From Bacteroidia bacterium (lineage in GTDB: Bacteria > Bacteroidota > Bacteroidia > M30B66), in assembly GCA_965279035.1 (NCBI GenBank), contig OZ257142.1:3488001-3552000 (forward strand): a DNA stretch of 64,000 nt, given 5' to 3'. This document shows, piece after piece, positions 5,160-64,000 of this stretch. Under the pieces are notes generated by a model, which saw nothing but the letters and a program-made list of their open reading frames with translations, had not been told where the DNA came from and did no database searches. Within the stretch, counting starts at the first letter, position 1, and every line of letters starts with the position of its first letter. The translations under genes and the position numbers were made by a program.

Positions 5160-5289
5160 ATTTATACATAACCCAATAATTGAATGATCATAGTGCTTAT
5201 TGTATTGCAGTATGCTGATTACAAAGTGTTGCATAACCTTTAGACTTGCAGTCAAAGATTTTAGCTGATAAATTTACCATAAATAAATG

Positions 5290-5440
5290 TAGTTAACCGA
5301 AAGCAGGGCGACCTATGCGCTAACAAGGATAATAGGCCTATGGAACGATATAGTGCCCTACTTTCTGGTTATTTAAGCCTCAGATAGATATTCGGGATTC
5401 AGGCCCATTATAAAGGTTTTGAGGTACAAATAACCATTGG
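5290..5440 (+). ncRNA. Putative IS110 bridge RNA (target-binding and donor-binding loops)
   Basis: Stems agggc/gccct and cctca/tgagg enclose guides gcgctaac, ggaacg, atagatat and taaagg that match the target and donor; ends approximate. Confidence 0.8.
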
Positions 5441-5467
5441 TTAATCCGTTTTGCTAATTATAAAATT

Positions 5468-6481
5468 ATGAATTCAAACCAGAACAACCAAAAACATTTT
5501 GTAGGAACAGATGTTTCAAAAGAAACACTTGATGTAACGATCTTTTTCAACTCCTCAATGCATTTTCATCAGCAATTTTCAAATGACAGCAAGGGCTTTA
5601 AGCAATTGCTGAAATGGCTAGAAACCTATCCTGAATTCAGTTTTGAAAATACTTTATTCTGCATGGAACATACAGGAATTTACACTCGTCAGTTTGTTGA
5701 ATTCCTCCTTTCGAAAGAAGCAAAGGTATGGATGGAGTCGGCACTGCATTTAAAGCGTTCTATGGGCATGACAAGGGGCAAAAGTGATAAGATCGATTCA
5801 CTGCGAATTGCACGCTATGCAATGACTCATCAGGACCAAGCCAGGCTCGTAAATCTTTCCAATAAAACATTGTTGCTTATCAAAGACCTTATGAGTGCAA
5901 GAGAGCGGAGTAAAAAGGCCTACCAGTCCATAAAAGTCTCCATTGATGAAATGCAAAGAGTCGATGCAGCAACAGCAAAAGAGCTCTTGAGGATTAATAA
6001 ACCAGCCCTTTCTGGATTATTGAAAAGCAAGATGGCGTTGGAAAAACGGATGATGGAATTAATAGCGATGGATCCTGAACTGAACGAGCTATTTGAGCTG
6101 GTTACTTCTGTCAAAGGTGTGGGTAATGTATTGGCAACCGAACTGATTGTTTATACACATGCATTTAAAAGAATGGATGAAGCCAAACAACTGGCCTGCT
6201 ATTGCGGAGTCGCTCCTTTTTCTCATACTTCCGGCACGAGTGTGCATGGAAGAAATGGAACTTCAAACTTTGCTAACATGGGACTTAAATCAACTTTACA
6301 CTTGGCTGCACTTTCTTCAATTCGTTACGTACCTGAGCTTAAAACATATTATCAGAGGAAAGTAGCTGAGGGAAAATCCAAAATGAGCGTAATTAATGCC
6401 GTGCGGAATAAACTGTTGCAACGTGTCTTAGCAGTGGTAAAAAGAGGAACGCCTTACCAAGAAAATTATCAAGTAAATTAA
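5468..6481 (+). CDS. IS110 DEDD recombinase/transposase
   Basis: GTDVSK, MEHTG, KSDKIDS (DEDD) and C-terminal TSG serine motif. Confidence 0.95.
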   Translation: MNSNQNNQKHFVGTDVSKETLDVTIFFNSSMHFHQQFSNDSKGFKQLLKWLETYPEFSFENTLFCMEHTGIYTRQFVEFLLSKEAKVWMESALHLKRSMGMTRGKSDKIDSLRIARYAMTHQDQARLVNLSNKTLLLIKDLMSARERSKKAYQSIKVSIDEMQRVDAATAKELLRINKPALSGLLKSKMALEKRMMELIAMDPELNELFELVTSVKGVGNVLATELIVYTHAFKRMDEAKQLACYCGVAPFSHTSGTSVHGRNGTSNFANMGLKSTLHLAALSSIRYVPELKTYYQRKVAEGKSKMSVINAVRNKLLQRVLAVVKRGTPYQENYQVN

Positions 6482-6501
6482 TTTGGAAAACTCATAGATA
6501 T

Positions 6502-6624
6502 CGTTCCGCACACACCTGAAGAGCCAAATGAGGTGAACGAAATGCTTTAGATTAGACGAATATAACAAGAAAAACGGATGCCTCACACCACCGAAATGCT
6601 TGGCTTTGCTGGTGTGTGCTGTTA
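6502..6624. repeat. attC-like repeat 1 (family B), interrupted by IS110; its TAAC is at 5234-5237
   Basis: gttcc-gcacacacc...ggtgtgtgc-t-gtta. Confidence 0.85.
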
Positions 6625-6929
6625 TGCGACGCTTTGTTTTCAAAATGCCCTTATAATTGATTTTGAATATACTGATTTTACTCTACTGGAAGTTCAAGTG
6701 ATAAGTGCAAATTTACTTTTAAAATTTTCAAAGTAGTAAAAGAAATTATACTTCGATATTTTGTAAAAATGATTTGTAATTGAATAGAACTAAATTAAAT
6801 ATTTCAAATAAATGAACACAAAAATGCTATACATAATATATGTATAAAAGATCAAATGACTTTTAAAAGATTTACAAAAGTTTAATACCAGGAAATTTGG
6901 ATTCTAAAAATATTGAATATATATTCACC

Positions 6930-8300
6930 CACACCCGTCCAAGACGTTTGTATAACGAAAATACAATCCTGATTTGATGCGAGATTACTCATCAAAGAAC
7001 GCTCTTTTGAAAATTAAACCCTCTATAATTTAAAAAAGGGACATTTGTAATTCCAGTTTATCAATTTCGTCATCATCTAAAAAGGGTTTATCAAGCCATT
7101 TTTTGAGGTCAATTTTCACAAAGAGATTTAATCGAATAAAGGACACCAAATTTGAGAGGTGCCAAGAGTGTTTTGCTTCCTTTTGAAGTGTCTTTAAAAG
7201 CAGTATGGTGATTAGTGCTGTCCAAATCTGTATCAGAACAGCATTCATGCTGGTTCCTATGAAAGACTTGATTTTCAGGTGTGTTTTGATCTCCTTGAAG
7301 AACGATTCGATGCTCCATCTACGTTTATATAGTTCTGAAATGGTCGATGCTGTCCAAGAAAAATTGTTTGTAAGAAGTTCAAGATATATCTGTTGTTCTT
7401 CATCCCAGATCTGAACCATTCGGAGCTTTTGCGGGTATTTTTCTTTTGATTGAGGTAAACTCAAAAAGCCTTTCCAGTCGTATTGCAAGTCTGGATTTGC
7501 TTCATCGGTTGGGCTCTTAGTTCGCTCATAAAGTTCAAACTGAATGTTTTCTTTTCCTCGAATAACAAAGAATACTCCTTGTTCATCTAATTTTCTCATC
7601 CAGTTAAAATCGACATATCCTCTATCAGCTACAACAATGCTTCCTGTGGGAAATTCAATATCATGTGCTGCATTTACATCGTGCTTTTTGCCATCACTCA
7701 AATCAGCAAAAACGGGCATACAGCCGTCAAAGTCAAGGACTGTGTGAAGTTTTATAGCTCCCTTCTTCTTTCGAAATAGTGCCCAGTCGAACACTTTAAG
7801 ACAAAGGTCAATCGTGGTTGAATCGAGCAGATAGATTTTACGTTTGGGAAGCAGCTTTCGGCTTGTTTTTAAGGTTGATTCAAACTGCTCATACAAGTTA
7901 AAATACATCGCTTGAAACAGCTCCCAGTTGCGATGTTGGTTATTATATGCCAACGATGATCGCCTCATGGCTTTTGACACTCCCAGATGATTTAAATCGC
8001 CTGTTGCTGATCGCATTCCATTGCAAACGTCATTTAAGCTATTAGACTTGGAAAACTGGCAAAAAACCATTGTCACAAAGTGAGACCAAGCATCATTGCC
8101 TTTACAATGTTTATTGGACTCAAACTTTTCTACTAGTTTATTGAAAGAATCTCGCTTAATTTTTTGGAATATCTGAGCAAATAATGTGATCTTCATGCCG
8201 GAGTTGGTTTATGTTTTTGTGTCGTAACTCAAACATACCGGATTTAATCCGGACCAACTCTATTTTTTTACCCTATTTTAAAACGTCTTGGACGGGTGTG
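6930..8300 (-). mobile_element. IS4-family insertion sequence
   Basis: Perfect 20 bp TIR cacacccgtccaagacgttt; 9 bp TSD atattcacc at 6921-6929 and 8301-8309. Confidence 0.95.
7030..8196 (-). CDS. IS4-family DDE transposase
   Basis: LLDST, VADRGY, YKRRWSIESFFK (YREK) motifs. Confidence 0.93.
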   Translation of the reverse strand: MKITLFAQIFQKIKRDSFNKLVEKFESNKHCKGNDAWSHFVTMVFCQFSKSNSLNDVCNGMRSATGDLNHLGVSKAMRRSSLAYNNQHRNWELFQAMYFNLYEQFESTLKTSRKLLPKRKIYLLDSTTIDLCLKVFDWALFRKKKGAIKLHTVLDFDGCMPVFADLSDGKKHDVNAAHDIEFPTGSIVVADRGYVDFNWMRKLDEQGVFFVIRGKENIQFELYERTKSPTDEANPDLQYDWKGFLSLPQSKEKYPQKLRMVQIWDEEQQIYLELLTNNFSWTASTISELYKRRWSIESFFKEIKTHLKIKSFIGTSMNAVLIQIWTALITILLLKTLQKEAKHSWHLSNLVSFIRLNLFVKIDLKKWLDKPFLDDDEIDKLELQMSLF

Positions 8301-8376
8301 ATATTCACCATACAAAATATTAAATGAATCGGCTCAAATAGATTCATTCTTTCCAGTAAATTTTAATTAATAGCTT

Positions 8377-9732
8377 ATGAATAACATTTACTCTTTCGAA
8401 AAAACATCAAAAGAATTTTACCTTGCTTGTAAAATTATTAGTTTCTTATTCTTAATGTTTTTAATTCATGATCCATTATCTGCTCAATCTAGTAATCCAA
8501 CTTTGACATGTAACTGGTCTCAATCTAACAATATTTCTGATTGTAATAATTTACTTTATCCATGTGTAAGCAATATTTCTGCAACTATTACTTATACTGA
8601 TTTCCCGGAGAATACTCAAATTAATTTCAATTTTCCAAATTCTTTTCATGTTGATATAACAGGGGCAATTAGTGTTGATGCGCCTGAAGCAATTAATGAT
8701 GGGCAATTTTATAATATTAATTCAATTGTAAGTGGCTCTGGAAGTTTAAATGTAAACCTGCAATTTCTTAATTGCAATTCAAATGGACCTGAAGTTATAA
8801 ATTTTAATAATTTAAGTTTTGATTGTTATGCGCCTTCGATTGGTCAGAATGGTTTAGAATCAGAATTTACTGGTCAAAATTTATCGATAGTTCCTGCGCC
8901 AAATACAATATTTACTTATACTTATGGAGGTCTTCCTTTTGAAATTATTAGTTGTAATAATTGTAATACTAGTTTAACCGCTCCTGGTTCAATAACAAGA
9001 AGTATTACTATTAAAGTTAATGCACCTCAAATTACTAATCTACTTTTTTCATATTCCGATGAAGCAGATGTGACTGAATCTTCTTTTGCTTTAAATGGTA
9101 ATGCAATAGTTAATTATATTGATTTAAATGGCATTCAGGTTGATGGTAACTGTGATAGGATTTTTAGTTTAACGCAGGATGTTGATGTGCAATGTGAAAA
9201 TTTTAGTGGTATTGGAAGTGTAAATATTTCTTTACCTTGTGGTGAATGTCAACCTTATTCCATATCAAATACTTTAAATGCGAGTATTAATTTGAATAAT
9301 CCTAATTTTTACATTACAAATACATTACAACAAGAAAATAATATTCTTGATGGATGCCCTGGTACTTATACAAATACTTATGTATTCCATAATATAAATC
9401 ATATTCCAATTAAAATTACGAATATTCAAGTTCCTCTAAATACAGGACTTTATTATATTTTAAATACCAAAGTAAATGGAATAGTAGTTGATTTCATTGA
9501 TACTTTAACTTTAATTGATGTTGGATATAATGATTTTACGCTTGTTTATGAATTAGGATTAAATTGTGAATATTATAAAAACTGTTCTCATCCAGTAAAT
9601 TATTTGAATCCTGAATCTGGAGAAATAAATATTTCATTTCAAAAAAATTGCACTGATACAATAACTTCACTTAATGTAGATTACACACCAATTTTAGGAC
9701 TGAATTATGCTTCAACTTTATTAGGTGGTGCA
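8377..9732 (+). pseudogene. N-terminal fragment of a large secreted protein, interrupted by IS3
   Basis: Signal peptide; LYPC...FPNSF similar to the N-terminus of the 2626 aa protein; reads into the IS3 end. Confidence 0.75.
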
Positions 9733-9781
9733 TGTATGTCTTCAAACAAAAGTGGACTTTTACTTAGAGAGTATTTCATTA

Positions 9782-10798
9782 TCAAATCAAAATTAGATTT
9801 AAATTTTGATTTTGTGATTTGAGTTTAGATTTTATCATCTCATATTCCATTCTTCTTGAGTTTAATGCTTCGTGTTTTAAGCGTTTTCTTTCTTTAAGGA
9901 TTTGATCACCTCTTCCATAGTATATATCAGCAGGAGTTAGGTTTTGCAATGATTCATGATAACGTTGGTTATTGTAATTATCAACAAATTTTCCCAGGGC
10001 ATCTTCAAGTTCTTCCGGACAATAATAGTGATTTAGCTTAACCACGTTTTTCATTGTACGATGATAACGTTCTATTTTACCTTGTGTTTGAGGATGAAAA
10101 GGCCTACCGTGTATTTGATCTATCTCATGGTTTTGCTTAAGGTAAGCACTGAGTTCCGCAGCAATATAACATGAACCATTATCCGATAATAGTTTGGGAC
10201 GAGGCTTTGACAGTAATTTGGCCTTTTTAATGGCTCTATCAACGGTTCTTTTTACATCTTCAACTTTCATCCCAGAACAGAGTTCCCAATGCACAATATA
10301 TCGGCTGTAATCATCTAAGATGGTACTTAAATAATACCAGCCCCAACCAATGATTTTAAAGTAAGTAAAGTCTGTTTGCCACATTTGATGAACAAATCCT
10401 GTTTTCTTAGAAAATTCATCGGCTGCTGAAATGAAAATATGGGCTGGTGAATTGATTAAGCCTCTCGATTTCAAAATGCGATAAACGCTCGATTCTGAAA
10501 TGAAAATCTGTTGCTCATCAGTTAGCTTAAAAGCAAGTTCACGAGATGATAATTCAGGATAATTCAAAGCAAGATCTACTACAAGATTCTTTTGCTGTTG
10601 TGGAATACTATTCCATTGCCTTTTTAAAACCCGCTTGCTTGGATTTAAGCCATCAACGCCGTTGTCAGCATATGATTTATACCATTTGTAAAATGTGCTC
10701 TTATTAAGCCCTATTTCACGTAAGGTGCGATTGACACCAATTTCAGATTGAACAACGAGATCGATGAGTTCCTGCTTTTCGGATGCTGTAAAACGCAT
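9782..10798 (-). CDS. IS3 transposase OrfB
   Basis: Identical to 1904-2920. Confidence 0.93.
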   Translation of the reverse strand: MRFTASEKQELIDLVVQSEIGVNRTLREIGLNKSTFYKWYKSYADNGVDGLNPSKRVLKRQWNSIPQQQKNLVVDLALNYPELSSRELAFKLTDEQQIFISESSVYRILKSRGLINSPAHIFISAADEFSKKTGFVHQMWQTDFTYFKIIGWGWYYLSTILDDYSRYIVHWELCSGMKVEDVKRTVDRAIKKAKLLSKPRPKLLSDNGSCYIAAELSAYLKQNHEIDQIHGRPFHPQTQGKIERYHRTMKNVVKLNHYYCPEELEDALGKFVDNYNNQRYHESLQNLTPADIYYGRGDQILKERKRLKHEALNSRRMEYEMIKSKLKSQNQNLNLILI

Positions 10799-10818
10799 AT
10801 ATTTTTTCAGTTTTACAG

Positions 10819-11172
10819 TTAATCCAGCATGGACAAGCTTTTTTTTACAATGTCATAGCGCAAAACCAAATCAGCGACCATTTCCTTTAAGCGCTGATTT
10901 TCTTTGCGAAGCTCTGACACTTCATCACTCGTAGCTTCGCGGGTTACATCACCGGAGAGACGCTTCTTACCTGCTTCCAAAAACTCCTTATTCCATTTAT
11001 AAAATTGACTCTCCTGTATAGAATACTTCCTACACAATTCTGCTACTGACAATTCAGCACGCAATGCCTCCATAACTATCTGGATCTTCTGTTCTGAACT
11101 GAAAATTCTTCTTGTCTTTCTGCGGATTTCTTTAATGTAATTCTCGGTCGTTTGTTTTTTCTTTGTTTCCAT
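10819..11172 (-). CDS. IS3 transposase OrfA
   Basis: Identical to 1530-1883. Confidence 0.9.
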   Translation of the reverse strand: METKKKQTTENYIKEIRRKTRRIFSSEQKIQIVMEALRAELSVAELCRKYSIQESQFYKWNKEFLEAGKKRLSGDVTREATSDEVSELRKENQRLKEMVADLVLRYDIVKKSLSMLD

Positions 11173-11254
11173 GGTTGTTAAAATTAAAAATATAACTTAG
11201 AAACACTCTCTTAGTTTTGACTATATTTAGTCCACTTTATGCTGACGATTTACA

Positions 11255-12655
11255 GCCAGTAATTCAGGAATAATTTTCCAACAAAATACAATGAAGTCTC
11301 ATGGAAATTCTTCACATATAGGAGCAGGTTTACTTTTAGGCTTTAACCCTAATATTATTTACAATAATAATCCAACGTCTATAACAATAGCTTCAGTAAT
11401 TGGACCTCAAGATACTACTAAAAATCAATGGCTTGATATGACATATGGTATTGGAGCAGTTGAACCTCAGGCAAGCTATTCATCCCAGACTAATCGTTTT
11501 TTTGTAAAAGGCAGTAATGATATTTCATTTTATACAAATCATGAACCTAATGATCCAACTTGCAACTTTGATTTGTTTTTTACTTGTCTTCCTGGTTCAA
11601 CATCTGCAGAAAGTAATATTTGTAGTTATGCTGGTTCAATAATAACGGGATATCGCATTGCAAATCCAAAGAACCTTATTGATATAATAAGTAAATCTGT
11701 TCATGACAGTTTATATTTTGACATGTATGATTCTGAAATTAACTATCAAGTAAAAAAAGATATTGATGTTCTTATTAAAAATCAAACTGGTACTATTCCA
11801 GATACGGGTACTATAAGTATTATGAATGCTATGATACAAACAACGAATATTCCTCAATTCAATAGTGTTAATAAACTTTCGGGTGAAAACAAAATTGATT
11901 CTTTAGAACTTGTAGAGTTTAAATTGAAAAGTAGAATCTTAGATTCATTAACTTTAATCAAAGATTCGTTAATCTTTGTTTATGATTCTGACTCAACAGT
12001 GATTAATGCTATTAATGCCCTCCAAAATGATATCAATACATTGGCTTCTAGTTTAACAAATATTCATAGCAATTATATTTCAATGAAGGCAGCTAGTAAT
12101 GAAAGTGCTAAGCAAGTAAATACTGCCATTACTCCTGTTAACTTAATGGAATATTTAGAAAAGAAAATCAATGTATACAATCACTTATACAATAGAGTAT
12201 CGTTTGTTGAATTTAATGAATCTGAAAAAAACATAATTGATTCTATTGCTTCAGTTTGCCCACTACTGGGCGGAAATGCTGTTTTCCTTGCCAGAAGTAT
12301 TCAATTTTCATACAATGACAGTATTTTTTACGATGATTTACTATTGTGCAATCAACAAGGTGTTTACAATCGTTTGGCAAATAAAGACAGCATTTATGAA
12401 TTGAAAGAAGAGCATTTTGTAGTTTATCCAAATCCATCAACTGGTGAATTGAATATATATTTAAGCTCAGGGGATATATACTCAATTCAAATCTTTAATT
12501 TATTAGGTCAATTGGTGTTTAAAGAATCTGATTTGAAATTAAAAACAACAGTTCTTATAGACAAAGAAAAGCTTGCAAATGGCACCTATATTCTGTTGCT
12601 TGAAAATAAAGTAACGGGGAAAATAGAGCGTAAAAAAATCAATTTCAATCATTGA
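11255..12655 (+). pseudogene. C-terminal part of a large T9SS-sorted protein
   Basis: No signal peptide, begins at the IS3 end, CPLLGGNAVFLAR motif and YPNP CTD. Confidence 0.8.
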
Positions 12656-12662
12656 ACTTAAA

Positions 12663-14201
12663 ATGAAAATCAAAATGTGTAATACAAAAATTATTTTTTG
12701 TTTTTTTATTGTCTTGTTATCATTGTCGCTCAAAGCACAACGTCAATCTGATGTTTTGGTAATGGGTAATAGTGTATATAGTATACCCGCCGAAGCTCCA
12801 GGTTCTAATTTCTTGATGGTATTTAATGAAGATAGTTTAGAATATATCGACAATGAAACCCCCATTATTCTATCCAATTTTTTTAGTCGTGCCTCATACT
12901 CAGATAAACACGGGAATTTAAAATTTGCATCCAATGGTTGGCGATTGGTGAATAGTTTTGGAGAAGTTCTTTCCTATAAATTATGGCGAGAAGATATGGA
13001 ATGGCCTCAAGGCTCTCCAGATACTACTCTAGTTGATATATCCAAAGGACCTTTGTTTTTAGAGGATCCCGCCGACAGCAATCGGGTGTATTTGTTTTAT
13101 GGACAATATAAACGCGATATACCATCTTCAATTGGACTAATTAGTCAAGATGTATATTTTACTTATGCTATTTTAGATGTACCATCACAGAGTATGATTA
13201 GTATTAATCATACTGTTTTGAGTGACACTACGTCTATTTCGGATGCAGTGGCTGTTCGTCATGGAAATGGTCGCGATTGGTGGATTATTAAGCCTGGAAT
13301 TTTTTCTAATGAATACTATATTGGATTATTGGATATCAATGGGGTATCCTCTATGCAGCATGTATTTATTGAAGGATTAGAACCTCATACACAAACCTAT
13401 ACAACATCTCATTTTAGTCAAGATGGAAATCACTTTATTCATTTTTCTGGATTTGGTCCTAAATGGGTTCAACGAATGGATTTTGATCGTTGCACTGGTA
13501 TTTTAAGTAACCCGCAAGATCTGGATATTAGTTCCTTATTTAGACCTGCTGACTTGCCTAATTTTATTCCAAGTCCAGATTTATCTAAGTTTTACGGAAA
13601 ACGATTAAATTACAATGATAGTAGTTATCAATACGGAACATATCAATATGATTTTGTTAATGATTCATTAACCTTTATAACCTTAGCTACAGGTCTTTCT
13701 TTTATTTCACCAAATTATAATAACGTATTCAACTTTGAATTATTTGATAATTCTAATCCATTTGAAAATATGTATTATAGCACAATAAATAACCTTACTG
13801 GAAATGGATTGGAATACCAACAGTTTCGTTATGAATTAACTAATACTGCAACGTGCGTTTTAGCACCTAATATAGTTAACTATAGGCTTGGCTCTTTAGT
13901 CGGGAGTGCTTGTGATCCTTTAGCCTTAGAAGATATGGCATTAATTAAATCAAAAAAACTCAGTCTCGAACTATTTCCCAATCCAGCAAATACTCAATTG
14001 CATGTCCGCATAAATGATCCCCAAAATGATTATTCAATACGATTGTATAACTCAATTGGTGAATTAGTGTATTCAACTCAATTAAGTAAAGGACTATTGG
14101 ATATTGATTTGACTTCTTTATCTCTTAGTTCTGGTGTGTATTTTATTGAATTATCCAATTCTACAGTCATAAAGCGTGAGAAAATTTTGATTGCTAATTG
14201 A
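12663..14201 (+). CDS. T9SS type A-sorted partner protein
   Basis: Close paralog of 3615-5159. Confidence 0.85.
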   Translation: MKIKMCNTKIIFCFFIVLLSLSLKAQRQSDVLVMGNSVYSIPAEAPGSNFLMVFNEDSLEYIDNETPIILSNFFSRASYSDKHGNLKFASNGWRLVNSFGEVLSYKLWREDMEWPQGSPDTTLVDISKGPLFLEDPADSNRVYLFYGQYKRDIPSSIGLISQDVYFTYAILDVPSQSMISINHTVLSDTTSISDAVAVRHGNGRDWWIIKPGIFSNEYYIGLLDINGVSSMQHVFIEGLEPHTQTYTTSHFSQDGNHFIHFSGFGPKWVQRMDFDRCTGILSNPQDLDISSLFRPADLPNFIPSPDLSKFYGKRLNYNDSSYQYGTYQYDFVNDSLTFITLATGLSFISPNYNNVFNFELFDNSNPFENMYYSTINNLTGNGLEYQQFRYELTNTATCVLAPNIVNYRLGSLVGSACDPLALEDMALIKSKKLSLELFPNPANTQLHVRINDPQNDYSIRLYNSIGELVYSTQLSKGLLDIDLTSLSLSSGVYFIELSNSTVIKREKILIAN

Positions 14202-14275
14202 ATTTATACATAACCCAATAATTGAATGATCATAGTGCTTATTTTATTGCATTATGCTTATTACAAAGTGTTGCA

Positions 14276-14402
14276 TAACGCTCCGCGTGCAACTCGAGGT
14301 TTGGGAATTGGTCAGCAGAATGCTTTAGATTAGACGAATATAGCAAGAAAATTGAAATGATTTAACCGAGCAGAATGCCCAAATCTTGAGTGCACGCTGT
14401 TA
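14276..14402. repeat. attC-like repeat 2 (family A)
   Basis: taac-gctcc-gcgtgcaactcgaggtttggg...cccaaatcttgagtgcacgc-t-gtta. Confidence 0.88.
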
Positions 14403-14413
14403 GTGGCTGGTGT

Positions 14414-53771: not shown

Positions 53772-53783
53772 CCTGCTGGCATT

Positions 53784-54614: not shown

Positions 54615-54653
54615 CTGTTTGTCTGTTTCTGTGTGGTCTGTTATGCTTGCAGG

Positions 54654-54779: not shown

Positions 54780-54801
54780 TGCGGTCGTTTTTCTTTTAGT
54801 G

Positions 54802-55356: not shown

Positions 55357-55357
55357 T

Positions 55358-56194: not shown

Positions 56195-56233
56195 TTCTGT
56201 CTGTGTTCTAGTGGTCTGTCCTAAAATGCCGCA

Positions 56234-56359
56234 TAACGTTTTGCAGCTACAAGAAGTTGGCGATTTCGGAGACGAAAACTGTCTGCCAGCACTGAACTTG
56301 ATACGAAGCACAAATGTTCATTTAACCACTGAACCGCCAATTTCTTGTAGGTGCTGTTA
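56234..56359. repeat. attC-like repeat 29 (family G)
   Basis: taac-gtttt-gcagctacaagaagttggcg...cgccaatttcttgtaggtgc-t-gtta. Confidence 0.88.
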
Positions 56360-56375
56360 TAGGGCGTTGTTCTTC

Positions 56376-57359
56376 TCATGCTTTTACGTCTGTCTGTTTT
56401 CTACTTTTTATAATTCTATTTGTCGTACCGATAATAATTGCACAAACAAGTCCAATTGCTGTCAGTAGAAGTGAAAAGAAAGGTGCTATGTTTGCATATT
56501 CAAGTCCTTCTATTCCCGCAACGTCTGTATAAAATCTTTGTTTTTTGATAAGTTCATATTGATTGTTCTTTTCAGCGAACAAGAATTCATATTTTGAGTA
56601 ATGGTCATTTGAGACTTGTCCACCACTCAACCCAGCAAAAATATATTTTTCATTGTCTTCTGTTGTGAATTCAGTAATAATGCCATTTAACTGACCAGAA
56701 GTGTCCCAATTTTTTTCGCCTTTATCAATTAGCTTACTTTCTTTAATTTGCTTGTCAATGGTCAGCAAAATATTTTGGGATGCTTTTAATTCTGGATTGT
56801 TATATATTTTAGGAAAGTCATACAAGTATCCGTTTATATGAGCCCTGTCTTCGAAAACCATAAAAATCCTATCAGAAGTACCATAATAAAAATCTTTTCT
56901 ACCATATAAATTGTCCATTGATTTTGTAGTGTCTATTGTAACATGAAGCGGTTTAATACCTATGGAATCAATATTAGAAACTCTCGAACATGTTACAACT
57001 TTGTCTGCTTTTAGGATTTCACTAAAAACTGCTGGTCTTTTAAAAGCATACCCCCAATAATTATAATTCATAATTGAAGCTGTCACGGTAAAGGCAAGTT
57101 GCAAAATAAGCAATGACCCTAAAAGTATTTTTAAACCTTTAGAAATATATTTATTCTTAAACCAAAAATAAAAGGTCAGTCCCGCAAGTAATGGAACTAA
57201 AAAGAAAATGAAATACCAAGTTAAACTTTCTGAATAATGAAGAGAAATGTTGTCATATAATTGTCGATTACTAGCCGTCAAGAACGTAAGAAGTCCATGA
57301 GCAATAGTAAAACCTGTCGCTGTGTAAATCAATATGTCTATGGTCTTTTGTCGTGTCAT
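56376..57359 (-). CDS. Membrane-anchored hypothetical protein
   Basis: Three N-terminal and one C-terminal TM segment; fills its cassette. Confidence 0.75.
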   Translation of the reverse strand: MTRQKTIDILIYTATGFTIAHGLLTFLTASNRQLYDNISLHYSESLTWYFIFFLVPLLAGLTFYFWFKNKYISKGLKILLGSLLILQLAFTVTASIMNYNYWGYAFKRPAVFSEILKADKVVTCSRVSNIDSIGIKPLHVTIDTTKSMDNLYGRKDFYYGTSDRIFMVFEDRAHINGYLYDFPKIYNNPELKASQNILLTIDKQIKESKLIDKGEKNWDTSGQLNGIITEFTTEDNEKYIFAGLSGGQVSNDHYSKYEFLFAEKNNQYELIKKQRFYTDVAGIEGLEYANIAPFFSLLLTAIGLVCAIIIGTTNRIIKSRKQTDVKA

Positions 57360-57373
57360 TTTACAATGCCCTA

Positions 57374-57499
57374 TAACGTTTTGCAGCTACAAGAAGTTGG
57401 CGATTTCGGAGACGAAAACTGTCTGCCAGCACTGAACTTGATACGAAGCACAAAGCTTCATTTAACCACTTAACCGCCAATTTCTTGTAGGTGCTGTTA
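57374..57499. repeat. attC-like repeat 30 (family G)
   Basis: taac...gtta palindrome. Confidence 0.88.
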
Positions 57500-57524
57500 G
57501 CGGTTCGTGCTTCTTGTTCTGTCC

Positions 57525-57977
57525 TCATTTGAAAATGTCAAAGTTGGTGTGAAGAAATTTGTCCCATTGCGGTTTTGGATGTTCAGTTTTTTTCTTTGTG
57601 TCTTTGCCGTTAAACCATATTGAACGCTTGCCCTTATTTTTTCCTGTCTTGTTTTGAACCGCATTGTCAACAAACTCTTGTGATGATAAAATCCATGTCT
57701 TGTCCATGCGGTGAGAATAAAATACAAAATAATAATTGTCCCGTTGCTCATGAGTGATTGCTGCAAAAAGTGCTGCATCTCCGAACAGAACGTCTTTTGA
57801 ACGGGCTTTGATTTGAAGTTCTACAAATGAACCGTCTTTCTTTCTAACAACTGCGTCAATTCCGAAGTCGTCAATAAGTGGAATGTAAACGTCAAGTCCT
57901 TGTTCAAGCATTTTGCTAATTACAAAATACTCCATTCGTTTTCCAAAGCCAGCGTTGTGTCTGAAAGTATTACTCAT
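57525..57977 (-). CDS. PD-(D/E)XK nuclease superfamily protein
   Basis: G...E, DD.GID, ELQIKAR. Confidence 0.78.
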   Translation of the reverse strand: MSNTFRHNAGFGKRMEYFVISKMLEQGLDVYIPLIDDFGIDAVVRKKDGSFVELQIKARSKDVLFGDAALFAAITHEQRDNYYFVFYSHRMDKTWILSSQEFVDNAVQNKTGKNKGKRSIWFNGKDTKKKTEHPKPQWDKFLHTNFDIFK

Positions 57978-58300
57978 TAGCTAAAAATTAAAGTTGCCAC
58001 AAAACTGTCATTGTCATGTCGCTTGTAAAAAACTCGTCCGCCCTCCATGTAAGTGCGAACCATAGTTCTTATCCATCGTCCTTTGTCATTTGTCGGTGCG
58101 AAAGCTAAAACTTGTGCCAGATGTTTGTTGTCCATAATGATTGGTGGTACTTCAAAGTTCTTGGTCGTGTCGGTGCCTTGCAAGTCCGTTTCAATGTTTT
58201 CAAAACTTAAAGTTGTTCTGTCAACCAAAAGTTCTGTCGTGATGTGATTACTTAAAACATTTTCTCTTTCGTTTTCTGTCCAGTCAGTGAATTTTGTCAT
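57977..58300 (-). CDS. Hypothetical protein
   Basis: 107 aa, translationally coupled to the nuclease gene. Confidence 0.65.
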   Translation of the reverse strand: MTKFTDWTENERENVLSNHITTELLVDRTTLSFENIETDLQGTDTTKNFEVPPIIMDNKHLAQVLAFAPTNDKGRWIRTMVRTYMEGGRVFYKRHDNDSFVATLIFS

Positions 58301-58362
58301 AATTGTATTGTTTGTTTAGTTAATGTCTGTTGATGTTTGCACTGTCGTCATAGCATGACCGC

Positions 58363-58488
58363 TAACGGTTTGCAGCTACAAGAAGTTGGCGATTACGAAG
58401 ACGAAAACTGTCTGCCACCACAGAACTTGATACGAAGCTCAAAGCTTCATTTAACCACTGAACCGCCAATTTCTTGTAGGTGCTGTTA
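58363..58488. repeat. attC-like repeat 31 (family G)
   Basis: taac...gtta palindrome. Confidence 0.88.
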
Positions 58489-58504
58489 TGCCCAGTTTTT
58501 CTTC

Positions 58505-59605
58505 TCACGTCAAGTCGTTTATGTCGTCCTGGAATACATAGTTTCTATGATAGTCTAGATATTCCTGTCTATCCTCTGGATATATTCTCAAGTTGTTTTT
58601 AGCGTTTGGATTAATATTAAGTCTTTCCCAAGTGTATGCTGAAAGCAAAGTGCCACAAACTAAATCTCCGTTGTCTTTAAAAGTTATGTAGCCTTGGTCA
58701 AAAAGTTTGTCGTAAGTTGGAGTTAAAGCAAGTCCGTTTAAATAATCAATTGCTTGGTCTTCACGTCCCTCCTTAATACAAACTCTGTAAGGTTTGATAT
58801 GGCTTGCAATTAGCAGTTTCTCGTCTGATATTTTTGTGAATGGACATTGTGGCATATGCTCAATAACTTTCTTTCTGTATTGGTCAGCACCTTGTCGTCC
58901 AATTGATTTTGTAGTTTCTCTTTTAGCTTTTTCTTCAACTTCAAGTTCGGCTGTCGTACCAATTAGTTTTGGGTGAACAATTGACCTAAATTGATAATCT
59001 AACAATATTCTGAAATAGAAAAGTGGTTTTTGATTTTCTTTATTTCCAACTACTGGTATGAGTTTTAGAATTGATAAATAGCTAATCTTTGGTAGAACTA
59101 ATTTTCTCCAAATATCCCAAATAGGTTCATCTGAACGTATATAACCTCTGCTTAATTTGTTATCTGTGAAATCCGAAACATCATAGATGCTAAAAAATAT
59201 CTTTTCATCTTCAAGTGCAGTGATGCTTTCTAAATTTTGAGTGTAAAATTCCGCAATATCAAAATTGTAGATTTGTTCTTGTTTTTGATATTCAATTCTT
59301 GCATCGTACATATATTTTAGCAAGTTTGACTTGCTAAAAAAGCAATTTCCTTCTTGAATTGGTGTATAAACTCTTTCGCCATTTTCTATCCCTTTTCCCC
59401 AATCTGAATATTCAAAAAAATCACTTAATCTTTCACCACTTTTCCCTACATAACCACCTACATATTTTCTTGATTCGCCATTGCCTTTGAACATTTGAAG
59501 CTTATTCTTGCGATAAATGAAACTATCCTCAGCTCTTAAATTTTGAATTGAATCAATAATAAAGTACTCCTTGCCTTCAATATGTATTTTTTGAAAATTC
59601 TCCAT
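58505..59605 (-). CDS. HNH restriction endonuclease-like protein
   Basis: CPFT...LIASHIKP...NGLAL...DKLFD.G.ITF (HNH_2). Confidence 0.85.
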   Translation of the reverse strand: MENFQKIHIEGKEYFIIDSIQNLRAEDSFIYRKNKLQMFKGNGESRKYVGGYVGKSGERLSDFFEYSDWGKGIENGERVYTPIQEGNCFFSKSNLLKYMYDARIEYQKQEQIYNFDIAEFYTQNLESITALEDEKIFFSIYDVSDFTDNKLSRGYIRSDEPIWDIWRKLVLPKISYLSILKLIPVVGNKENQKPLFYFRILLDYQFRSIVHPKLIGTTAELEVEEKAKRETTKSIGRQGADQYRKKVIEHMPQCPFTKISDEKLLIASHIKPYRVCIKEGREDQAIDYLNGLALTPTYDKLFDQGYITFKDNGDLVCGTLLSAYTWERLNINPNAKNNLRIYPEDRQEYLDYHRNYVFQDDINDLT

Positions 59606-59608
59606 AAT

Positions 59609-61084
59609 TTATTTAGCAAATTTAGTAATGTCCATTTGTTTTAATAGTGCAATAAGAACATCTACTACAATGCTATTACCTGCTTGTCTATACATTTGTG
59701 TGTCGCTAACAACTTGCTTAAAGTCGTCACGGAAGCCCATTAGGCGTAGGCATTCTTTTGGTGTTAGTTTTCTAATTCGTCCTGTATGAGTAACATAATT
59801 GTCAACCCCAGCTCGGTGCATTTTATGCATACTTTGTAAAAGAGGTCTTGCTACTTCAAGGTCTGTTTTTACTGATGTTTTAAAGGTTTTCGTTCCGCTA
59901 CTTAGAACGTAATCTCTTACTTTATCCGACAAATAATATTTCTCTTCAACTTTATTTACATCAAAAACAAAATCTGAAAATTCAGGTTCGTTACCTTGTT
60001 CAAAAACAAAATCACCGTGCCAATTAAATTGTTGATTTGCTTTTTGACAAAGTGCAACTTCGCCATTTATTTGTGTGTAACGTTTGTTTCTGTTTTTTGA
60101 ACTGGTTACGAATTTTACACCTTTTTCTTTCAAGTAATATTTGCTGTCTGTGTAATCTTCTAAAAAGTCTTGCATTTTATGTTCAAGTGCAATTGATTCT
60201 GGAAATTGAAAATCAATTGTTTTGTCTTTGAAACCAACAACAAAAATTCTTTCTCTATGCTGTGGCATTCCATAGTTTTTTGCATTTAGAACTTGGAAAT
60301 AATATTTATAACCTAATTCGTCAAATGTCGCTTTAATGGTTTCAAAAGTGTTGCCATTGTCGTGATTGATTAATCCTTTTACGTTTTCAAAAATGAAAAC
60401 ATTCGGCTGACTTTCTTTTACAACTCTTGCAAATTCATAAAATAAAGTTCCTCTTGTGTCATCAAAACCTCTGCGTTTTCCAACCATTGAAAATGATTGA
60501 CAAGGGCTACCACCAACCAATAAGTCTAATTTCCCTTTGTATTTTTTCCCGTTTATGTCGTGAACATCATTGTACCAATTGCTTTCAGCAATTTCATAAT
60601 TTGCAAAATAACTTTGCTTTGCAAAGCTATCAATGTCGCTTGCAAATTGAATTTCAGAATTTAAGTTTAAGCGTTTTAAAGCGTACTCAATAGCACCAAT
60701 TCCTGAAAACATTGTTCCAATTCTAATGGTTGCGTTAGGGTTTGAAAATTCTTTTTCTCTCCAGTCTTTTTGAAATTTTAAAACTTGTTGATTTGCGTAG
60801 AAACCTAATTGTTCATTTACAATATTTAAGACTTCTTGATATTCGGGATATGATTTTAATTCTTCAACAATTTTGGTTGAGTAATGATAATTTAGAAGTA
60901 CTCTTTTGTCTGTTTGCAGTATTTGACAAAGGTTTTCAAGTTGGTCAATGTTTAGATGCCTTTCGTCCTTTTCAATTTTTCCAAGGGTCGAAGGGTCTAT
61001 GTCTATGTGTGAAGCAACTTTGCGAAGGGGAAAACCTAATTCGGTTCTTTTCTGTTTTATATATTCTCCAAATGTAACTTCCAT
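59609..61084 (-). CDS. XRE-HTH-fused DNA (cytosine-5) methyltransferase
   Basis: N-terminal HTH; FSGIG, GSPCQ, ENV, Q.RER, Q.GNS motifs. Confidence 0.93.
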   Translation of the reverse strand: MEVTFGEYIKQKRTELGFPLRKVASHIDIDPSTLGKIEKDERHLNIDQLENLCQILQTDKRVLLNYHYSTKIVEELKSYPEYQEVLNIVNEQLGFYANQQVLKFQKDWREKEFSNPNATIRIGTMFSGIGAIEYALKRLNLNSEIQFASDIDSFAKQSYFANYEIAESNWYNDVHDINGKKYKGKLDLLVGGSPCQSFSMVGKRRGFDDTRGTLFYEFARVVKESQPNVFIFENVKGLINHDNGNTFETIKATFDELGYKYYFQVLNAKNYGMPQHRERIFVVGFKDKTIDFQFPESIALEHKMQDFLEDYTDSKYYLKEKGVKFVTSSKNRNKRYTQINGEVALCQKANQQFNWHGDFVFEQGNEPEFSDFVFDVNKVEEKYYLSDKVRDYVLSSGTKTFKTSVKTDLEVARPLLQSMHKMHRAGVDNYVTHTGRIRKLTPKECLRLMGFRDDFKQVVSDTQMYRQAGNSIVVDVLIALLKQMDITKFAK

Positions 61085-61104
61085 ATTTGTCTATTTTTTT
61101 GTTC

Positions 61105-61126
61105 GGACTATTTTTGTCCAAAAGTA
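61105..61126 (-). promoter_or_regulatory. Promoter -7 box and palindromic operator of the MTase gene
   Basis: TACTTTTG (61119-61126) abutting GGAC-N7-GTCC (61105-61119). Confidence 0.55.
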
Positions 61127-61187
61127 TGGAATGTTTGTCATGTTCGCAAATTTTGTTGTCAACGGTCGGTCGTCCTAAAATTGGGCA

Positions 61188-61313
61188 TAACGTTTTGCAG
61201 ATTTGCGATGGGCGGGATTTTCAGCACAAATGTTGATGCGGAGCACAAATCTTTCGGCTACCACTAAACTGTCTGCGGAGAACGAAACCCCGCCTATTGC
61301 AAATGTGCTGTTA
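61188..61313. repeat. attC-like repeat 32 (family F)
   Basis: taac...gtta palindrome. Confidence 0.88.
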
Positions 61314-61511
61314 GCAGTAGTGCTTTCTCGTTTGTCGAAGTGCAGTCTGTCCATGTTTGCGGTGTCTTGGTGCGTTGGCTTGGTGGCTCTTTTGGATTTT
61401 TTTAGCGTTGGTCAATGCGTTGAAAAAAAATACAAATGTGCCACCAAATGCGTTGCAGAGGTATGTTGAGTAATTTTGTTTCCATAACGTTAGCATCTAA
61501 ATTCAGTTGCT

Positions 61512-62546
61512 TTAAAAAATTTCAATTCCATGTTCAATATAGTAGCTTTTTAACTTGTTTGTTTTTTCGATAAATAAACTATAAAACCAATTGTCATATT
61601 CTGCTAAATAAAAGCTTTCGTTATCTGAATTCGTTAAACAGGATATAATTGTATTCGCTGCTTTAATTCCAGAATATAAAGCATTTAAAATGCCTTGTCC
61701 AGCAGCAGGGTCTATAATACCAGCAGCATCACCACATAAAATAATGCCTTCTTTGCATAATGGTCTAAACAATCGCCAACGCATATTTGACTTTCGTATA
61801 TTACCCTTTAATGGATAGTTTTTTAAAATATTTGGCTTTAAAAAAAATTGTTTCCCTTTGGTAGAAAGTACAGTCCAAGTGCAGTCATTAGGAGGTGTCG
61901 GTGCAATCCAAGTCCAACCATTTCTATTAGGAATAAAATTAGTGTTAGCTTCTTTAAACATCAAATTTTCAGCCTCAATTGCGGTTGAAATGCCCGTCCA
62001 AGAAATCAATGGAGGGGAAATAAAAAGTTCTCTAAACTTCATTTTTTTTCCACCAAATCGTTTGAAACCTGTTGCATCAATTACATATTTTGAAAGAATT
62101 TGTGACCCTGAATTTGTTATAACTCCAATAACACAATTGTCATCAATTACTAATTCGCTAACCACATTATCAAGAGTATTTACATTCTGCTGAATAGCTG
62201 ATTGTAATAGTGTTTCGTCAAATATTGTTCTGTTTATGTGGTAACCAAACCAAATGCCATTTTCATCTGAACCCAAATTAGTAACTATGTTACTTGTTCT
62301 TATGCCTTGATATTTTCCAATTGTAGATTGCCTTATACTACTTTCTGCTTTTAAGGACGTAAGAATAGTCAAGATGCCTGGGTGAACGCTTTCTGCTGGT
62401 CTTATTTTATTAGAATTGATAATATTTGAAATTAGAAGAACTGATAAATCATTTTGCACACAAGTTATTGCGGCAGATAATCCTGCTGGGCCGCTTCCAA
62501 TAACAATAACATCATATTGTGCATGAAATTCCATTAAATCCCCCAA
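61512..62546 (-). CDS. FAD-dependent oxidoreductase (LodB/halogenase-like)
   Basis: GSGPAG, DATG, GDAA...DP..GQG. Confidence 0.85.
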   Translation of the reverse strand: MGDLMEFHAQYDVIVIGSGPAGLSAAITCVQNDLSVLLISNIINSNKIRPAESVHPGILTILTSLKAESSIRQSTIGKYQGIRTSNIVTNLGSDENGIWFGYHINRTIFDETLLQSAIQQNVNTLDNVVSELVIDDNCVIGVITNSGSQILSKYVIDATGFKRFGGKKMKFRELFISPPLISWTGISTAIEAENLMFKEANTNFIPNRNGWTWIAPTPPNDCTWTVLSTKGKQFFLKPNILKNYPLKGNIRKSNMRWRLFRPLCKEGIILCGDAAGIIDPAAGQGILNALYSGIKAANTIISCLTNSDNESFYLAEYDNWFYSLFIEKTNKLKSYYIEHGIEIF

Positions 62547-64000
62547 TCAATTATTTTAACTACATTGTAATTGCTAATTACTTTGCATTTTGCAATTGCA
62601 TTTTCGGAAATTTGACAAACAAAGAGTTCTTTACATTTTTGTAGTCGTCTTTTAACATCTGCTCCTGATTCTGCCCATTGTCGAGAATTTAAATCGGCAT
62701 CTTTGTCGGTATCTGCAAAAACAAATAAGTAACAATTTTCATCTTTATTAATACTAGGTTGAATTGTTAAAGCCCAATCTTTATTGATGCCAAAAAGTTG
62801 CTGAGGTATTCCATGACCTTCAAATGAGTTGTTACCTTTTTTTAATTTCTCCCCACTTATTAGCCACAATGTAGTACCACCAACGGTTGTCTTGTTGTTT
62901 ATAGAATTGATAGATTTTCGCAGTGCTTCCATTCGGTTTATTAGCTCACCACTTGTTAACTCACTCAACTTGGATAAATCTATCTTTCCATTAATTCCAT
63001 TTTCTACATAATCAGCTCTACCTAAATCGGTGAAATTTACATACCAACTATTTTTATCCTTTGGGTATTCCAAAAACGGACCTTGCTCACCGTCCCATCC
63101 AAACTCTGAATCTCTCTTTGCATTTTGGCTTGCAGGGGATTTTGTATGAAAACCTAATTCATCATCCATAAGCGGAATAGCCGTTGGATTTCTATACCAA
63201 TTATTATCTTTTATTTGATTTTTGGTAACAGTACCTTGATATACTCTAGCAGCATCTGGAGATGCAACTGGCCACATACCATTCATTGCTGCACATAGTT
63301 TCATGTCCTCAACAAATGGTGCACCCAGCCCCATTGTGCTTAAGAAAATGTTTTTTGTGTCATTTCCATTATTTCCATAAGTCACATCCCAACCAGGGGC
63401 AAATACTGAAGAGCATACATCAGGAAGATAACTTGTGGTTTTATAATCATCTGCCCAATTTTTCTTATTTGTATTTAATGTTGATATTACAGCTGTTAAG
63501 GTATTATATAATTTGTCTGAATTATTTGAAGAGGGAAATGCTTTCTGATTACTATTTGGTATAGTTATGCTGGGATTCGGTCTTATTCTAGCAGAAGCAA
63601 GGCAAGCAATACCACCTTCGTAAAAATTACTTTCAATAGATATTCCAGGTTTAACATCATAATTAACTATGTCAAATACATTTACATATTGGAAAAAATC
63701 AGGTGCAGTCACAATTGAAAAGGCGTTATATGAACCTCTATTTATTACACTCTGTAATATTGAACTTTTAAAATTAGTTATATTAATTGTTACTACTCCA
63801 TCACACAAGGAATCTTCATAAACAGGAGCAAAATAACCACCTTTACTAATTGTGGTCTCAAATAAATCGTCATTCCTTTTTGAAATTTTTTCTGGATTTC
63901 TCATGTTATCAAGTTTATGAGCAATATGAACGTACATTGGTTTATTGCGTGCGTCCTTATAATTATTTGGAATTCGATAATCTTCGTTATCACTTAATAT
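62534..64000 (-). CDS. Possible LodA/GoxA-like protein, C-terminal part (starts beyond the window)
   Basis: ED..CDG.V, APDF and D..LC......WP...PD motifs resemble the LodA family; coupled to the flavoprotein gene. Confidence 0.5.
   Translation of the reverse strand: MLSDNEDYRIPNNYKDARNKPMYVHIAHKLDNMRNPEKISKRNDDLFETTISKGGYFAPVYEDSLCDGVVTINITNFKSSILQSVINRGSYNAFSIVTAPDFFQYVNVFDIVNYDVKPGISIESNFYEGGIACLASARIRPNPSITIPNSNQKAFPSSNNSDKLYNTLTAVISTLNTNKKNWADDYKTTSYLPDVCSSVFAPGWDVTYGNNGNDTKNIFLSTMGLGAPFVEDMKLCAAMNGMWPVASPDAARVYQGTVTKNQIKDNNWYRNPTAIPLMDDELGFHTKSPASQNAKRDSEFGWDGEQGPFLEYPKDKNSWYVNFTDLGRADYVENGINGKIDLSKLSELTSGELINRMEALRKSINSINNKTTVGGTTLWLISGEKLKKGNNSFEGHGIPQQLFGINKDWALTIQPSINKDENCYLFVFADTDKDADLNSRQWAESGADVKRRLQKCKELFVCQISENAIAKCKVISNYNVVKIIDWGI

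Follow-up and report, generated by a model that had tools for sequence, protein, structure and literature searches.

A long array of hairpin sites in a Bacteroidia genome

The 64,000-nucleotide stretch of a Bacteroidia bacterium genome analysed here (GCA_965279035.1, contig OZ257142.1, positions 3,488,001 to 3,552,000; hereafter the window) carries a non-canonical, integron-like array. Thirty-two hairpin sites, all on the + strand, bound 31 cassettes of 0.4 to 9.6 kb, each made of a cargo and the site at its 3′ end, and the array extends past both ends of the window. Its cargo includes a restriction-modification (R-M) pair, a toxin-antitoxin (TA) pair, HNH nucleases, a candidate defence gene, proteins of the type IX secretion system (T9SS), an IS91-type transposase and units without an open reading frame (ORF). 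We regard it as almost certain that this is a cassette array that exchanges its units at AAC and works in an integron-like manner. Sequence comparisons suggest that it is likely part of a gene-capture system found across the phylum, whose recombinase lacks the hallmark integron domain, I2.

Sites were found by searching the whole window with a profile built from 15 seeds (E values from 3e-15 to 4e-26). Three extra matches at E 0.23 were dropped, being located inside copies of an insertion sequence (IS) of the IS110 type. An earlier, sequence-only reading of this DNA had described 32 repeats of 124 to 127 bp starting at 5234. The profile returns exactly that number: 29 sites are intact at this length and run from YAAC to GTTR, the other three are interrupted by identical 1265-bp IS110 copies at TAA|C, and position 5234 marks the TAAC of the first of these three. 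Without any model, a scan for AAC-G-N4-stem...stem-T-GTT gave 26 matches on the + strand and none on the − strand. Shortened sites that begin with the same AAC-G-N4 occur in L058 (~9709-9762, ~54 nt) and L077 (~10795-10885, ~90 nt); because such versions escape 126-nt models, all site counts are lower bounds.

We sorted the sites into types, using letters that are our own naming. Type A comprises sites 2 (14276..14402), 3 (15359..15485), 7 (27777..27903), 8 (28345..28471), 18 (42228..42354) and 21 (45881..46007). Type B comprises sites 1 (5234..6624, split by IS110), 5 (16427..16552), 6 (26095..26220), 13 (37689..39079, split by IS110 copy 2 at 37692-38956), 16 (40591..40716) and 19 (42732..42857), and site 23 (47033..48423, split by copy 3 at 47036-48300) is B-like. 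Sites 4 (15925..16049) and 14 (39522..39646) are type C, and sites 10 (34577..34701), 15 (40024..40148), 17 (41661..41785) and 22 (46447..46571) are type C′. Type D is found at sites 11 (35144..35269), 25 (49881..50006) and 26 (51764..51889), and site 24 (49380..49503) is a hybrid, with a left arm of type D and the remainder of type C. The remaining types are F (site 12, 37027..37150), G (site 27, 53646..53771; site 32, 61188..61313), H (site 9, 28849..28974), J (site 20, 43460..43585; site 28, 54654..54779) and K (site 29, 56234..56359; site 30, 57374..57499; site 31, 58363..58488).

In the folded site, YAAC/GTTR is followed by a G.T pair and then by a pyrimidine-rich bulge of 4 nt on the 5′ arm; beyond these come a ~20-bp stem and a loop that varies. 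The 5-nt bulge described earlier is a G.T pair followed by a 4-nt bulge. In DNA folding, the + strand was the more stable in 27 of the 29 intact sites (mean −20.3 versus −16.3 kcal/mol), with fold z scores for intact sites from −0.9 to −6.2 (30 shuffles each). The + strand is the non-coding strand for nearly all cassette genes, and one G.T pair that works on this strand only is invariant in 24/24 sites, so the earlier claim that the non-coding strand folds best, with G.T pairs on the + strand, stands. Among 24 distinct sites, compensatory changes were seen at 17 of 24 stem pairs, and 89% of cells pair, compared with 31 to 46% when the partner is slid; the weight of this covariation rests on the slid control, because the shuffle control ignores kinship. 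From these folding and covariation patterns, it is very probable that a folded single strand is the substrate.

The sites depart from attC convention in several respects. Across 26 distinct bodies, the 5/1 register pairs 8.4 of 9 positions and the canonical L-box register 3.9 of 7. The R-box consensus sequences RYYYAAC and GTTRRRY each fit none of the 31 cargos, with only YAAC/GTTR retained, and none of the 26 window bodies has a 3′-arm bulge in the first 16 stem positions, where an extrahelical base would lie. Rfam gave no match at the gathering threshold, and none at E 0.1 for 34500-47100; a type-J site searched against plasmids also had no match.

Complementary cargo ends

The two ends of each cargo are complementary. 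Positions 1 to 9 form nine Watson-Crick pairs in 30 of 31 window cargos, position 11 is T in all 31 (opposite G in 26), and positions 12 to 15 are all paired in 26. In a larger set of 60 cargos from the window and fetched loci, end pairing exceeded that of shuffled partners and stopped at position 16; some locus cargos in this set span a missed site, which lowers the counts. Within the array, the two flanks of one site belong to different cassettes and usually pair over only three to six bases. A full arm would thus arise on excision alone, in the circular form, as the logic of an integron requires. The distance from stop codon to crossover was 135 to 161 bp in the 10 window cassettes measured.

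Cassettes change neighbours at AAC

We examined 12 metagenome loci with a relative of the cassette at 56356-57377; those of the 12 not named below were more diverged or incomplete. Four loci (L171, L172, L173 and L178) share one cargo variant and an identical 3′ site, followed by four different next cassettes, each starting at TAAC. Conversely, L171 to L173 and L177 carry four different sites after the cargo's own AAC. The mobile unit is thus a cargo together with its 3′ site. Because the fourth base (Y) follows the cargo, exchange can be placed within AAC-G. We infer a crossover at G^TT (AA^C on the folded strand), which had also been proposed from the sequence alone; exchange at the AAC/GTT junction is borne out, but these data resolve AAC-G and not the single base. 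Gain and loss at these junctions, an outcome on which that proposal had staked itself, is what the metagenome relatives display, and the description of a hairpin-based, single-stranded cassette system holds as regards an array on hairpin sites with exchange at their ends. A contig of run X5 agrees with the R-M cassette over 58467-61195, beyond which its DNA is unlike that of the window, and one contig of run X19 reaches ~6 kb past 64,000. Eighteen runs had shares of 0.13 to 0.21, X1, X2 and X5 being those examined among them, and we claim no habitat.

A second, rarer type of exchange concerns the site bodies. Identical or near-identical cargos are found with different 3′ bodies, switching at (C)TGTTA. 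The HNH cargo at 14399..15362 is 100% identical to 48420-49383, and its 3′ bodies are A and B-like, respectively. Cargos of the ORF-less family E1 carry A, B or C′ bodies, and those of family E2 carry A or C. When the window is compared with L169, identity begins at TGCTGTTA. Two of the cleanest cases of body swapping fall at IS110-split sites. Cutting of the coding strand would swap site bodies without inverting anything, and PMC5027507, in the portion that bears on this point, reports that removal of extrahelical bases favours top-strand recombination. Hybrid site 24 indicates that homologous exchange appears to act as well.

A recombinase family without I2 adjoins related arrays

A search with one site subtype gave an estimated 2,100 matching GTDB stretches, nearly all from Bacteroidota among the 80 loci listed, and one tyrosine-recombinase family adjoins the arrays in those loci. 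Its members have a SAM_4 domain and an IntI-like C-terminus and are mostly intact as genes. All five proteins scored 192 to 213 bits on TIGR02249, below the cut-off of 265 and in two stretches, and one protein aligned to IntI4 (2a3v) skips ~42 residues at I2. The best solved-structure matches are archaeal XerA, and phage matches are integrases at 33 to 38%. The family is encoded in 45 of 141 sampled genomes. In a tree made by a quick method, IntI forms one clade (support 100) inside the I2-less family; we claim no order of events, because the root rests on two long branches. Note that, in the text available of PMC8138268, the insertion shows incomplete conservation within the integron-like subgroup described there.

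To approach the association from the protein side, 40 loci were taken by protein profile alone (40 of 59 matches), with only ~4 kb fetched upstream. Sites were present at 21 of these 40 loci. Of their 46 sites, 40 are downstream and co-oriented with the gene, 6 are upstream and divergent, and none is otherwise placed; the two geometries put the gene at the head of the array. The site family occurs in 32 of 80 genomes, namely 16 of 26 that are recombinase-positive and 16 of 54 that are recombinase-negative (Fisher P = 0.008, not corrected for kinship), a positive though loose association. None of 44 sites adjoining an I2-less recombinase has an extrahelical G.

The gene lies 46 to 276 bp from an attI-like site, and cassettes read away from it. 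This site, YAA|C-N6-ATAnnCGCWA, consists of two inverted 10-bp arms around a 7-nt core, and the recombinase-proximal cassette ends there in an inverted copy of the cassette arm. Among 17 co-oriented examples, four of them picked by eye, inner-arm positions 1 to 3 read A-T-A in 16, 16 and 14. The open cargo at the end of the window, 61310..64000 (− strand; a FAD oxidoreductase and a 467-aa gene of unknown function), has its partner arm outside the window, in the direction in which we expect attI and the recombinase.

By profile coverage, 21 of 40 I2-less proteins have an extra N-terminal domain. Its structural model (pLDDT 93.7) matched the HARP domain of SMARCAL1 (4o66) best in Foldseek, at a weak E of 0.088; in VIA it matched the N-termini of XPB (Z 7.2) and UvsW (Z 6.6) and another at Z 4.5. 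HARP, XPB-DRD and UvsW N-terminal folds we take to be one group. Pfam found HARP in 2 of 20 proteins (best E 6e-5) and DUF5710 in 9 of 20, and the N-terminal profile had nothing under E 0.4 among Protein Data Bank sequences. The modelled HARP-like assignment is thus weak, with no Foldseek E under 0.001 and no Z reaching 8. At least five array-linked recombinases do without this domain (L149, L152, L155, L156 and L158), so it cannot be essential. These five proteins are ~280 to 306 aa long and divergent from their arrays, like those of classical integrons.

IntI integrons of the same phylum sample

Canonical IntI also occurs in the phylum, above cut-off in 45 of 141 sampled genomes. At 11 of 20 IntI loci we found arrays whose sites share the G.T pair and the 4-nt R-proximal bulge; at the other nine, no site was found with the scanners used. 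Our hand-made scanner for canonical attC found little even at IntI loci, and its silence is not evidence of absence. The sites beside IntI have an extra base 8 to 10 nt from GTT on the far arm, mostly G, in 27 of 28 cases. This count comes from sites found without requiring an L box and excludes L211:2841, which is of the window type; a regular expression requiring the L box gave 38 of 45, a biased figure. IntI-adjacent sites retain the L box, their cassette ends pair over ~11 to 12 bp, and the T is present in only 10 of 34. Window-type sites score 26 to 92 bits beside the I2-less family and 21 to 33 bits at IntI loci. The attI of both types reads TAA + 7 nt + TTA/ATA.

Thus, the canonical IntI integrons L203 to L215 resemble the window in the AAC-G-N4 bulge, the T-GTT and the attI spacing, but differ in having extrahelical G and T, an L box, a full and divergent IntI, sites of 82 to 121 nt and no fixed T. 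Combining the 4-nt R-proximal bulge with the canonical extrahelical bases, their attC sites are possibly a link between the two designs.

These comparisons alter the standing of the sequence-only reading. It had taken the 5-versus-1 bulge as the mark of a new platform, an argument that fails because canonical IntI genes of this phylum sample have sites with that bulge beside them. The lack of IntI in the 64 kb is confirmed to the extent that no tyrosine recombinase was found among the 42 window ORFs scanned with Pfam (74 ORFs were listed); it shows little about the platform, because the array leaves both ends of the window and canonical IntI is so frequent in the sample. As for a distinct recombination platform, the site type is indeed tied to a recombinase that, by profile or alignment, is not IntI, but the system is a distinct branch of integron design and not an unrelated platform. 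It departs from integrons in I2, in the R-box consensus, in the L box and in the extrahelical bases. What sets it apart is that its sites have no extrahelical bases, that its 15-bp arms carry T at position 11 and that its recombinase is without I2.

Sedentary chromosomal integrons (of the Vibrio VCR type; PMC2727003, PMC5027507 and structure 2a3v) share with this system a long array whose cassettes are mostly co-oriented, 3′ sites, AAC/GTT, complementary ends and a bottom strand stabilized by G.T pairs. They also share host-typical sites of ~125 bp, an attI-like 7-nt core, cargo of TA, R-M, defence and ORF-less kinds, and SAM_4 with an IntI-like C-terminus. In contrast to them, the sites here have no extrahelical bases on the R″-L″ arm, no L box, a G.T pair and 4-nt bulge instead of the 5/5 spacer, 15-bp arms with an invariant T, and no RYYYAAC or GTTRRRY. 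Cassettes here reach 9.6 kb, site bodies reassort, and the recombinase is without I2, often has the HARP-like domain and is usually co-oriented and upstream.

Proposed mechanism and alternatives

Because the I2-less enzyme accompanies sites without the bases bound by I2, and the window sites are of that type, we assign the array to this enzyme. Judged from this correspondence of site types, it is quite probable that the I2-less enzyme runs the array. The reading as a whole, an integron-like array of swappable cassettes run by an I2-less tyrosine recombinase whose place we predict to be past base 64,000 or in another part of the genome, we consider probable. In the proposed mechanism, the non-coding strand would fold and the enzyme would cut at AA|C. 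The cassette would leave as a circle, its site now with a fully paired 15-bp arm, and this circle would insert at a double-stranded attI, the junction probably being resolved by replication. With less assurance, given the lack of both extrahelical bases and I2, the 4-nt bulge and the G.T pairs would govern which strand is chosen, and the HARP-like domain may be what reads them. This choice would be leaky, and an occasional cut of the coding strand would give a cargo its neighbour's site body.

Several observations weigh against this reading. The array's own recombinase and attI would lie outside the window, and only the type of site assigns the enzyme. Contigs showed neither an excised circle nor an empty site: no credible excision joint was found over 53600-64000 in the contigs of runs X19, X1, X2 and X5, where candidates were short or inside repeats, and contigs drop rare forms, which limits this search. 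The body-swap junctions were read from the assembly and not from source reads, so the swaps are putative to that extent. No site was found in the DNA fetched at 19 of the 40 recombinase loci, and the recombinase-negative genomes with sites, the weak HARP assignment and the array-linked members without that domain point the same way. So do the frequency of canonical IntI and the shared bulge at IntI loci. In the parts of the literature that bear on this, IntI1 is efficient on some sites that have no extrahelical bases (PMC5027507), and recombinases without intI_Cterm near canonical attC were concluded not to be IntI (PMC4889954).

The alternative that survives best is an ordinary chromosomal integron, or a cluster of attC sites lacking an integrase (CALIN), in which canonical IntI would recombine an attC specific to the lineage and the I2-less recombinase would be a bystander or decayed derivative. 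The presence of IntI in 45 of 141 genomes would suit it, as would the AAC-G-N4 and T-GTT shared with IntI-adjacent sites and the likeness of the two attI types. Five site-positive, recombinase-negative genomes (G019, G050, G063, G064 and G068) have IntI, and end complementarity of 9 to 11 bp is described as normal for cassettes in the available text of PMC2727003. However, window-type sites reach higher scores beside the I2-less family, and IntI-adjacent sites keep their extrahelical base, have shorter paired ends and seldom show the T. The I2-less genes are mostly intact and hold a fixed geometry at attI-like sites, and no window cargo fits GTTRRRY or RYYYAAC. We consider this explanation unlikely.

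Less probable still, and in our view improbable, is a Xer-type reaction, in which the same recombinase or the host XerCD would act on a dif-like site formed from the 15-bp arms, as for CTX phage, with the hairpin presenting the arm or, for example, acting as a terminator. The archaeal XerA structure matches agree with this, as do the 10-bp arms, which we take to resemble Xer arms. According to PMC4792948, XerCD, itself without I2, recombines a folded phage site that has no extrahelical bases. XerA/XerCD and CTX phage thus share with our system a catalytic domain without I2 and a folded substrate without extrahelical bases. Here, in contrast, arrays of many cassettes follow a dedicated recombinase gene and its own attI-like site, not dif, and the inner stem lacks a conserved sequence arm, yet has strong covariation and a fixed bulge. 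This alternative differs from an array run by the I2-less enzyme mainly in the resolution step.

It is very improbable that the sites are repeats akin to repetitive extragenic palindromes or miniature inverted-repeat transposable elements, which the HUH transposase of the IS91 family or homologous recombination would have spread, with cassettes as by-products: three HUH transposase cassettes lie in the array, and the mosaic ORF-less families and hybrid site 24 suggest some homologous exchange, but all 32 sites have one orientation, the transposase is ordinary cargo with no close homologue in 301 genomes (E 1e-60) while sites are widespread, and each cargo has its own complementary ends and exchanges precisely at AAC between unrelated bodies.

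An extended version of the favoured reading, which we find rather doubtful, would have the array as a second single-strand system of the phylum, with neither I2 nor extrahelical bases, surviving from a pre-I2 stage ancestral to IntI, in which the HARP-like domain reads the 4-nt bulge, cuts on either strand shuffle sites as well as genes, and tet(X) and blaVEB were captured.

Resistance genes on plasmids and gene uptake in Riemerella

Immediately ahead of tet(X3), tet(X5)-estT and blaVEB-3 (L216:6139-8310, L217:4516-7415 and L219:6133-7754) are truncated members of the recombinase family. They are annotated as tnpF or tyrosine recombinase, with an attI-like junction at the gene start, and tet(X3) retains a partial 3′ site; ~50 Acinetobacter plasmids match. 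A Riemerella plasmid (L220) has five strong sites and a Sphingobacterium plasmid (L221) two, behind tet(X), estT and their neighbours. A full 15-bp arm pair flanks tet(X2). Arm pairs are also present at catB, ereD and erm(F), but these genes are opposite in strand to the sites. In the text available of PMC11194056, XerD-annotated genes adjoin tetX and catB in Chryseobacterium. From these sequence associations, it is likely that the system has also captured resistance genes such as tet(X).

An aph(3′)-IVb unit of Riemerella anatipestifer, consisting of 27 bp, the gene and a 140-bp attC-like hairpin, integrates site-specifically without homology (PMC13148043, from 2026); the available text of that paper names no recombinase, attI or site family. 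With its short 5′ leader, gene and hairpin, the unit resembles the window cassettes, the sizes match, and we find sites on a Riemerella plasmid. This match is by size and genus only and not by the 140-bp sequence, which also counts against our reading.

Cargo of the array

Nearly all cassette genes lie on the − strand. The longest, at 9.55 kb (16549..26098), encodes a 2626-aa and a 497-aa T9SS sorting-domain protein, and its ends pair over 15 bp; Pfam found T9SS sorting domains in six window proteins, of which the 2626-aa protein is the largest, and these domains speak for an origin in Bacteroidota. Other − strand cassettes encode an S-adenosylmethionine methyltransferase and an unknown gene (26217..27780), a TPR protein (40713..41664), an 89-aa ParE/RelE-type toxin with a likely antitoxin of 65 aa (42854..43463), the candidate defence gene PDC-S32 with a GYF_2 protein (43582..45884), an unknown 276-aa gene (53768..54657), a CAAX protease with DUF998 (54776..56237), the unknown 327-aa gene whose metagenome relatives exchange neighbours (56356..57377), two unknown genes of 107 and 150 aa (57496..58366), and a type II R-M pair of a C5 methyltransferase and an HNH nuclease (58485..61191). 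A 5.6-kb cassette (28971..34580, − strand) holds ten genes, including DUF4386, polyketide cyclase, glyoxalase, Crp-like, GNAT and flavodoxin genes. The two copies of the HNH cassette (14399..15362 and 48420..49383) are likewise on the − strand.

The IS91-family HUH transposase cassette (403 aa, with an 89-aa gene; 35266..37030, − strand) recurs at 50003-51767 and 51886-53649. These last two copies are in tandem, and all three have a type-D site at the 3′ end.

Coding on the strand opposite to the other cassettes, the 7.7-kb cassette at 6621..14279 (+ strand) contains genes with T9SS signals at 8377-9822, 11291-12655 and 12663-14201, together with IS4-family (7030-8196) and IS3-like (9782-11172) transposases, and is partly paralogous to 2957-5236. 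The IS3-like element has two copies in opposite orientation (1530-2920 and 9782-11172), each inside one of two paralogous T9SS blocks.

Fourteen of the 31 cassettes are ORF-less, mosaic and 385 to 546 bp long, with no assigned strand. Family E1 (447-450 bp; first copy 15482..15928) has seven copies, starting at 15482, 27900, 34698, 39076, 40145, 41782 and 46004. Family E2 (385 bp; first copy 16046..16430) has five, starting at 16046, 28468, 39643, 42351 and 49500. The two X cassettes, X1 (37147..37692) and X2 (46568-47036), are related to each other. With E1 as query, no match was found in 301 genomes. ORF-less cassettes may be structured RNAs: they fold strongly (z of −2.8 and −7.0), but six near-identical E1 copies show 0 compensatory pairs.

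An IS110 element inserted at the probable crossover point

IS110 copy 1 (5237..6501, + strand; transposase 5468-6481) is identical to copies 2 and 3, and all are inserted at TAA|C of GTTCC-type sites; five intact AACGTTCC targets are left. The transposase has Pfam domains PF01548 and PF02371 (DEDD), and three relatives were found at ~40% identity. Upstream of it, a leader folds into two stems with internal loops (z −3.0), which we predict to be a bridge RNA (5285..5460, + strand). Its loops hold four 6-nt guides in sequence, GCTAAC (5319) matching the left and GGAACG (5342) the right side of the target, AGATAT (5386) the left and TAAAGG (5411) the right side of the donor. These guides were first spotted by eye, and all four together occurred in 0 of 20,000 shuffles. 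The arrangement matches the bridge-RNA model with target and donor loops, as given in the available text of PMC11208160. IS110 would parasitize the array through a bridge RNA that spells out the crossover point.

IS1111 elements targeting attC are already known (PMC11187229, as far as its text was available), and the IS110 element is therefore a parallel case. Both have a DEDD transposase and an RNA guide aimed at cassette recombination sites, predicted in our case, but here the non-coding region is upstream of the transposase (the IS110 type) and the target is AA|C of a non-canonical site. An array on a Chryseobacterium plasmid (L218:12278-16060) with an intact recombinase contains two insertions on the strand opposite to its cassettes, a further IS110 and a group II intron.

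Implications

We found no description of this platform in the literature covered, which did not extend to subscription papers and bioRxiv supplements. The window contributes an array of 32 sites, the 15-bp arm, a comparison with sites linked to IntI, the swapping of sites, the guide of the IS110 and a connection to a published experiment. Cassettes of up to 9.6 kb suggest a recombination tool for large cargo. The presence of tet(X) and blaVEB-3 behind truncated family members on clinical plasmids suggests a capture pathway that surveillance could look for. For the homology-free uptake of genes in Riemerella, so far without an explanation, the system would supply an enzyme and a site by name.

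Integron chemistry is held to have a core in which the I2 domain and the extrahelical bases coevolved (PMC4792948), IntegronFinder defines IntI by that domain (PMC4889954), and almost no complete integrons are found in Bacteroidetes by IntegronFinder (PMC9024848). A platform without both features, with its recombinase in about one-third of the sampled phylum genomes, would escape that definition. It would also make it possible to test whether I2 or attC came first.

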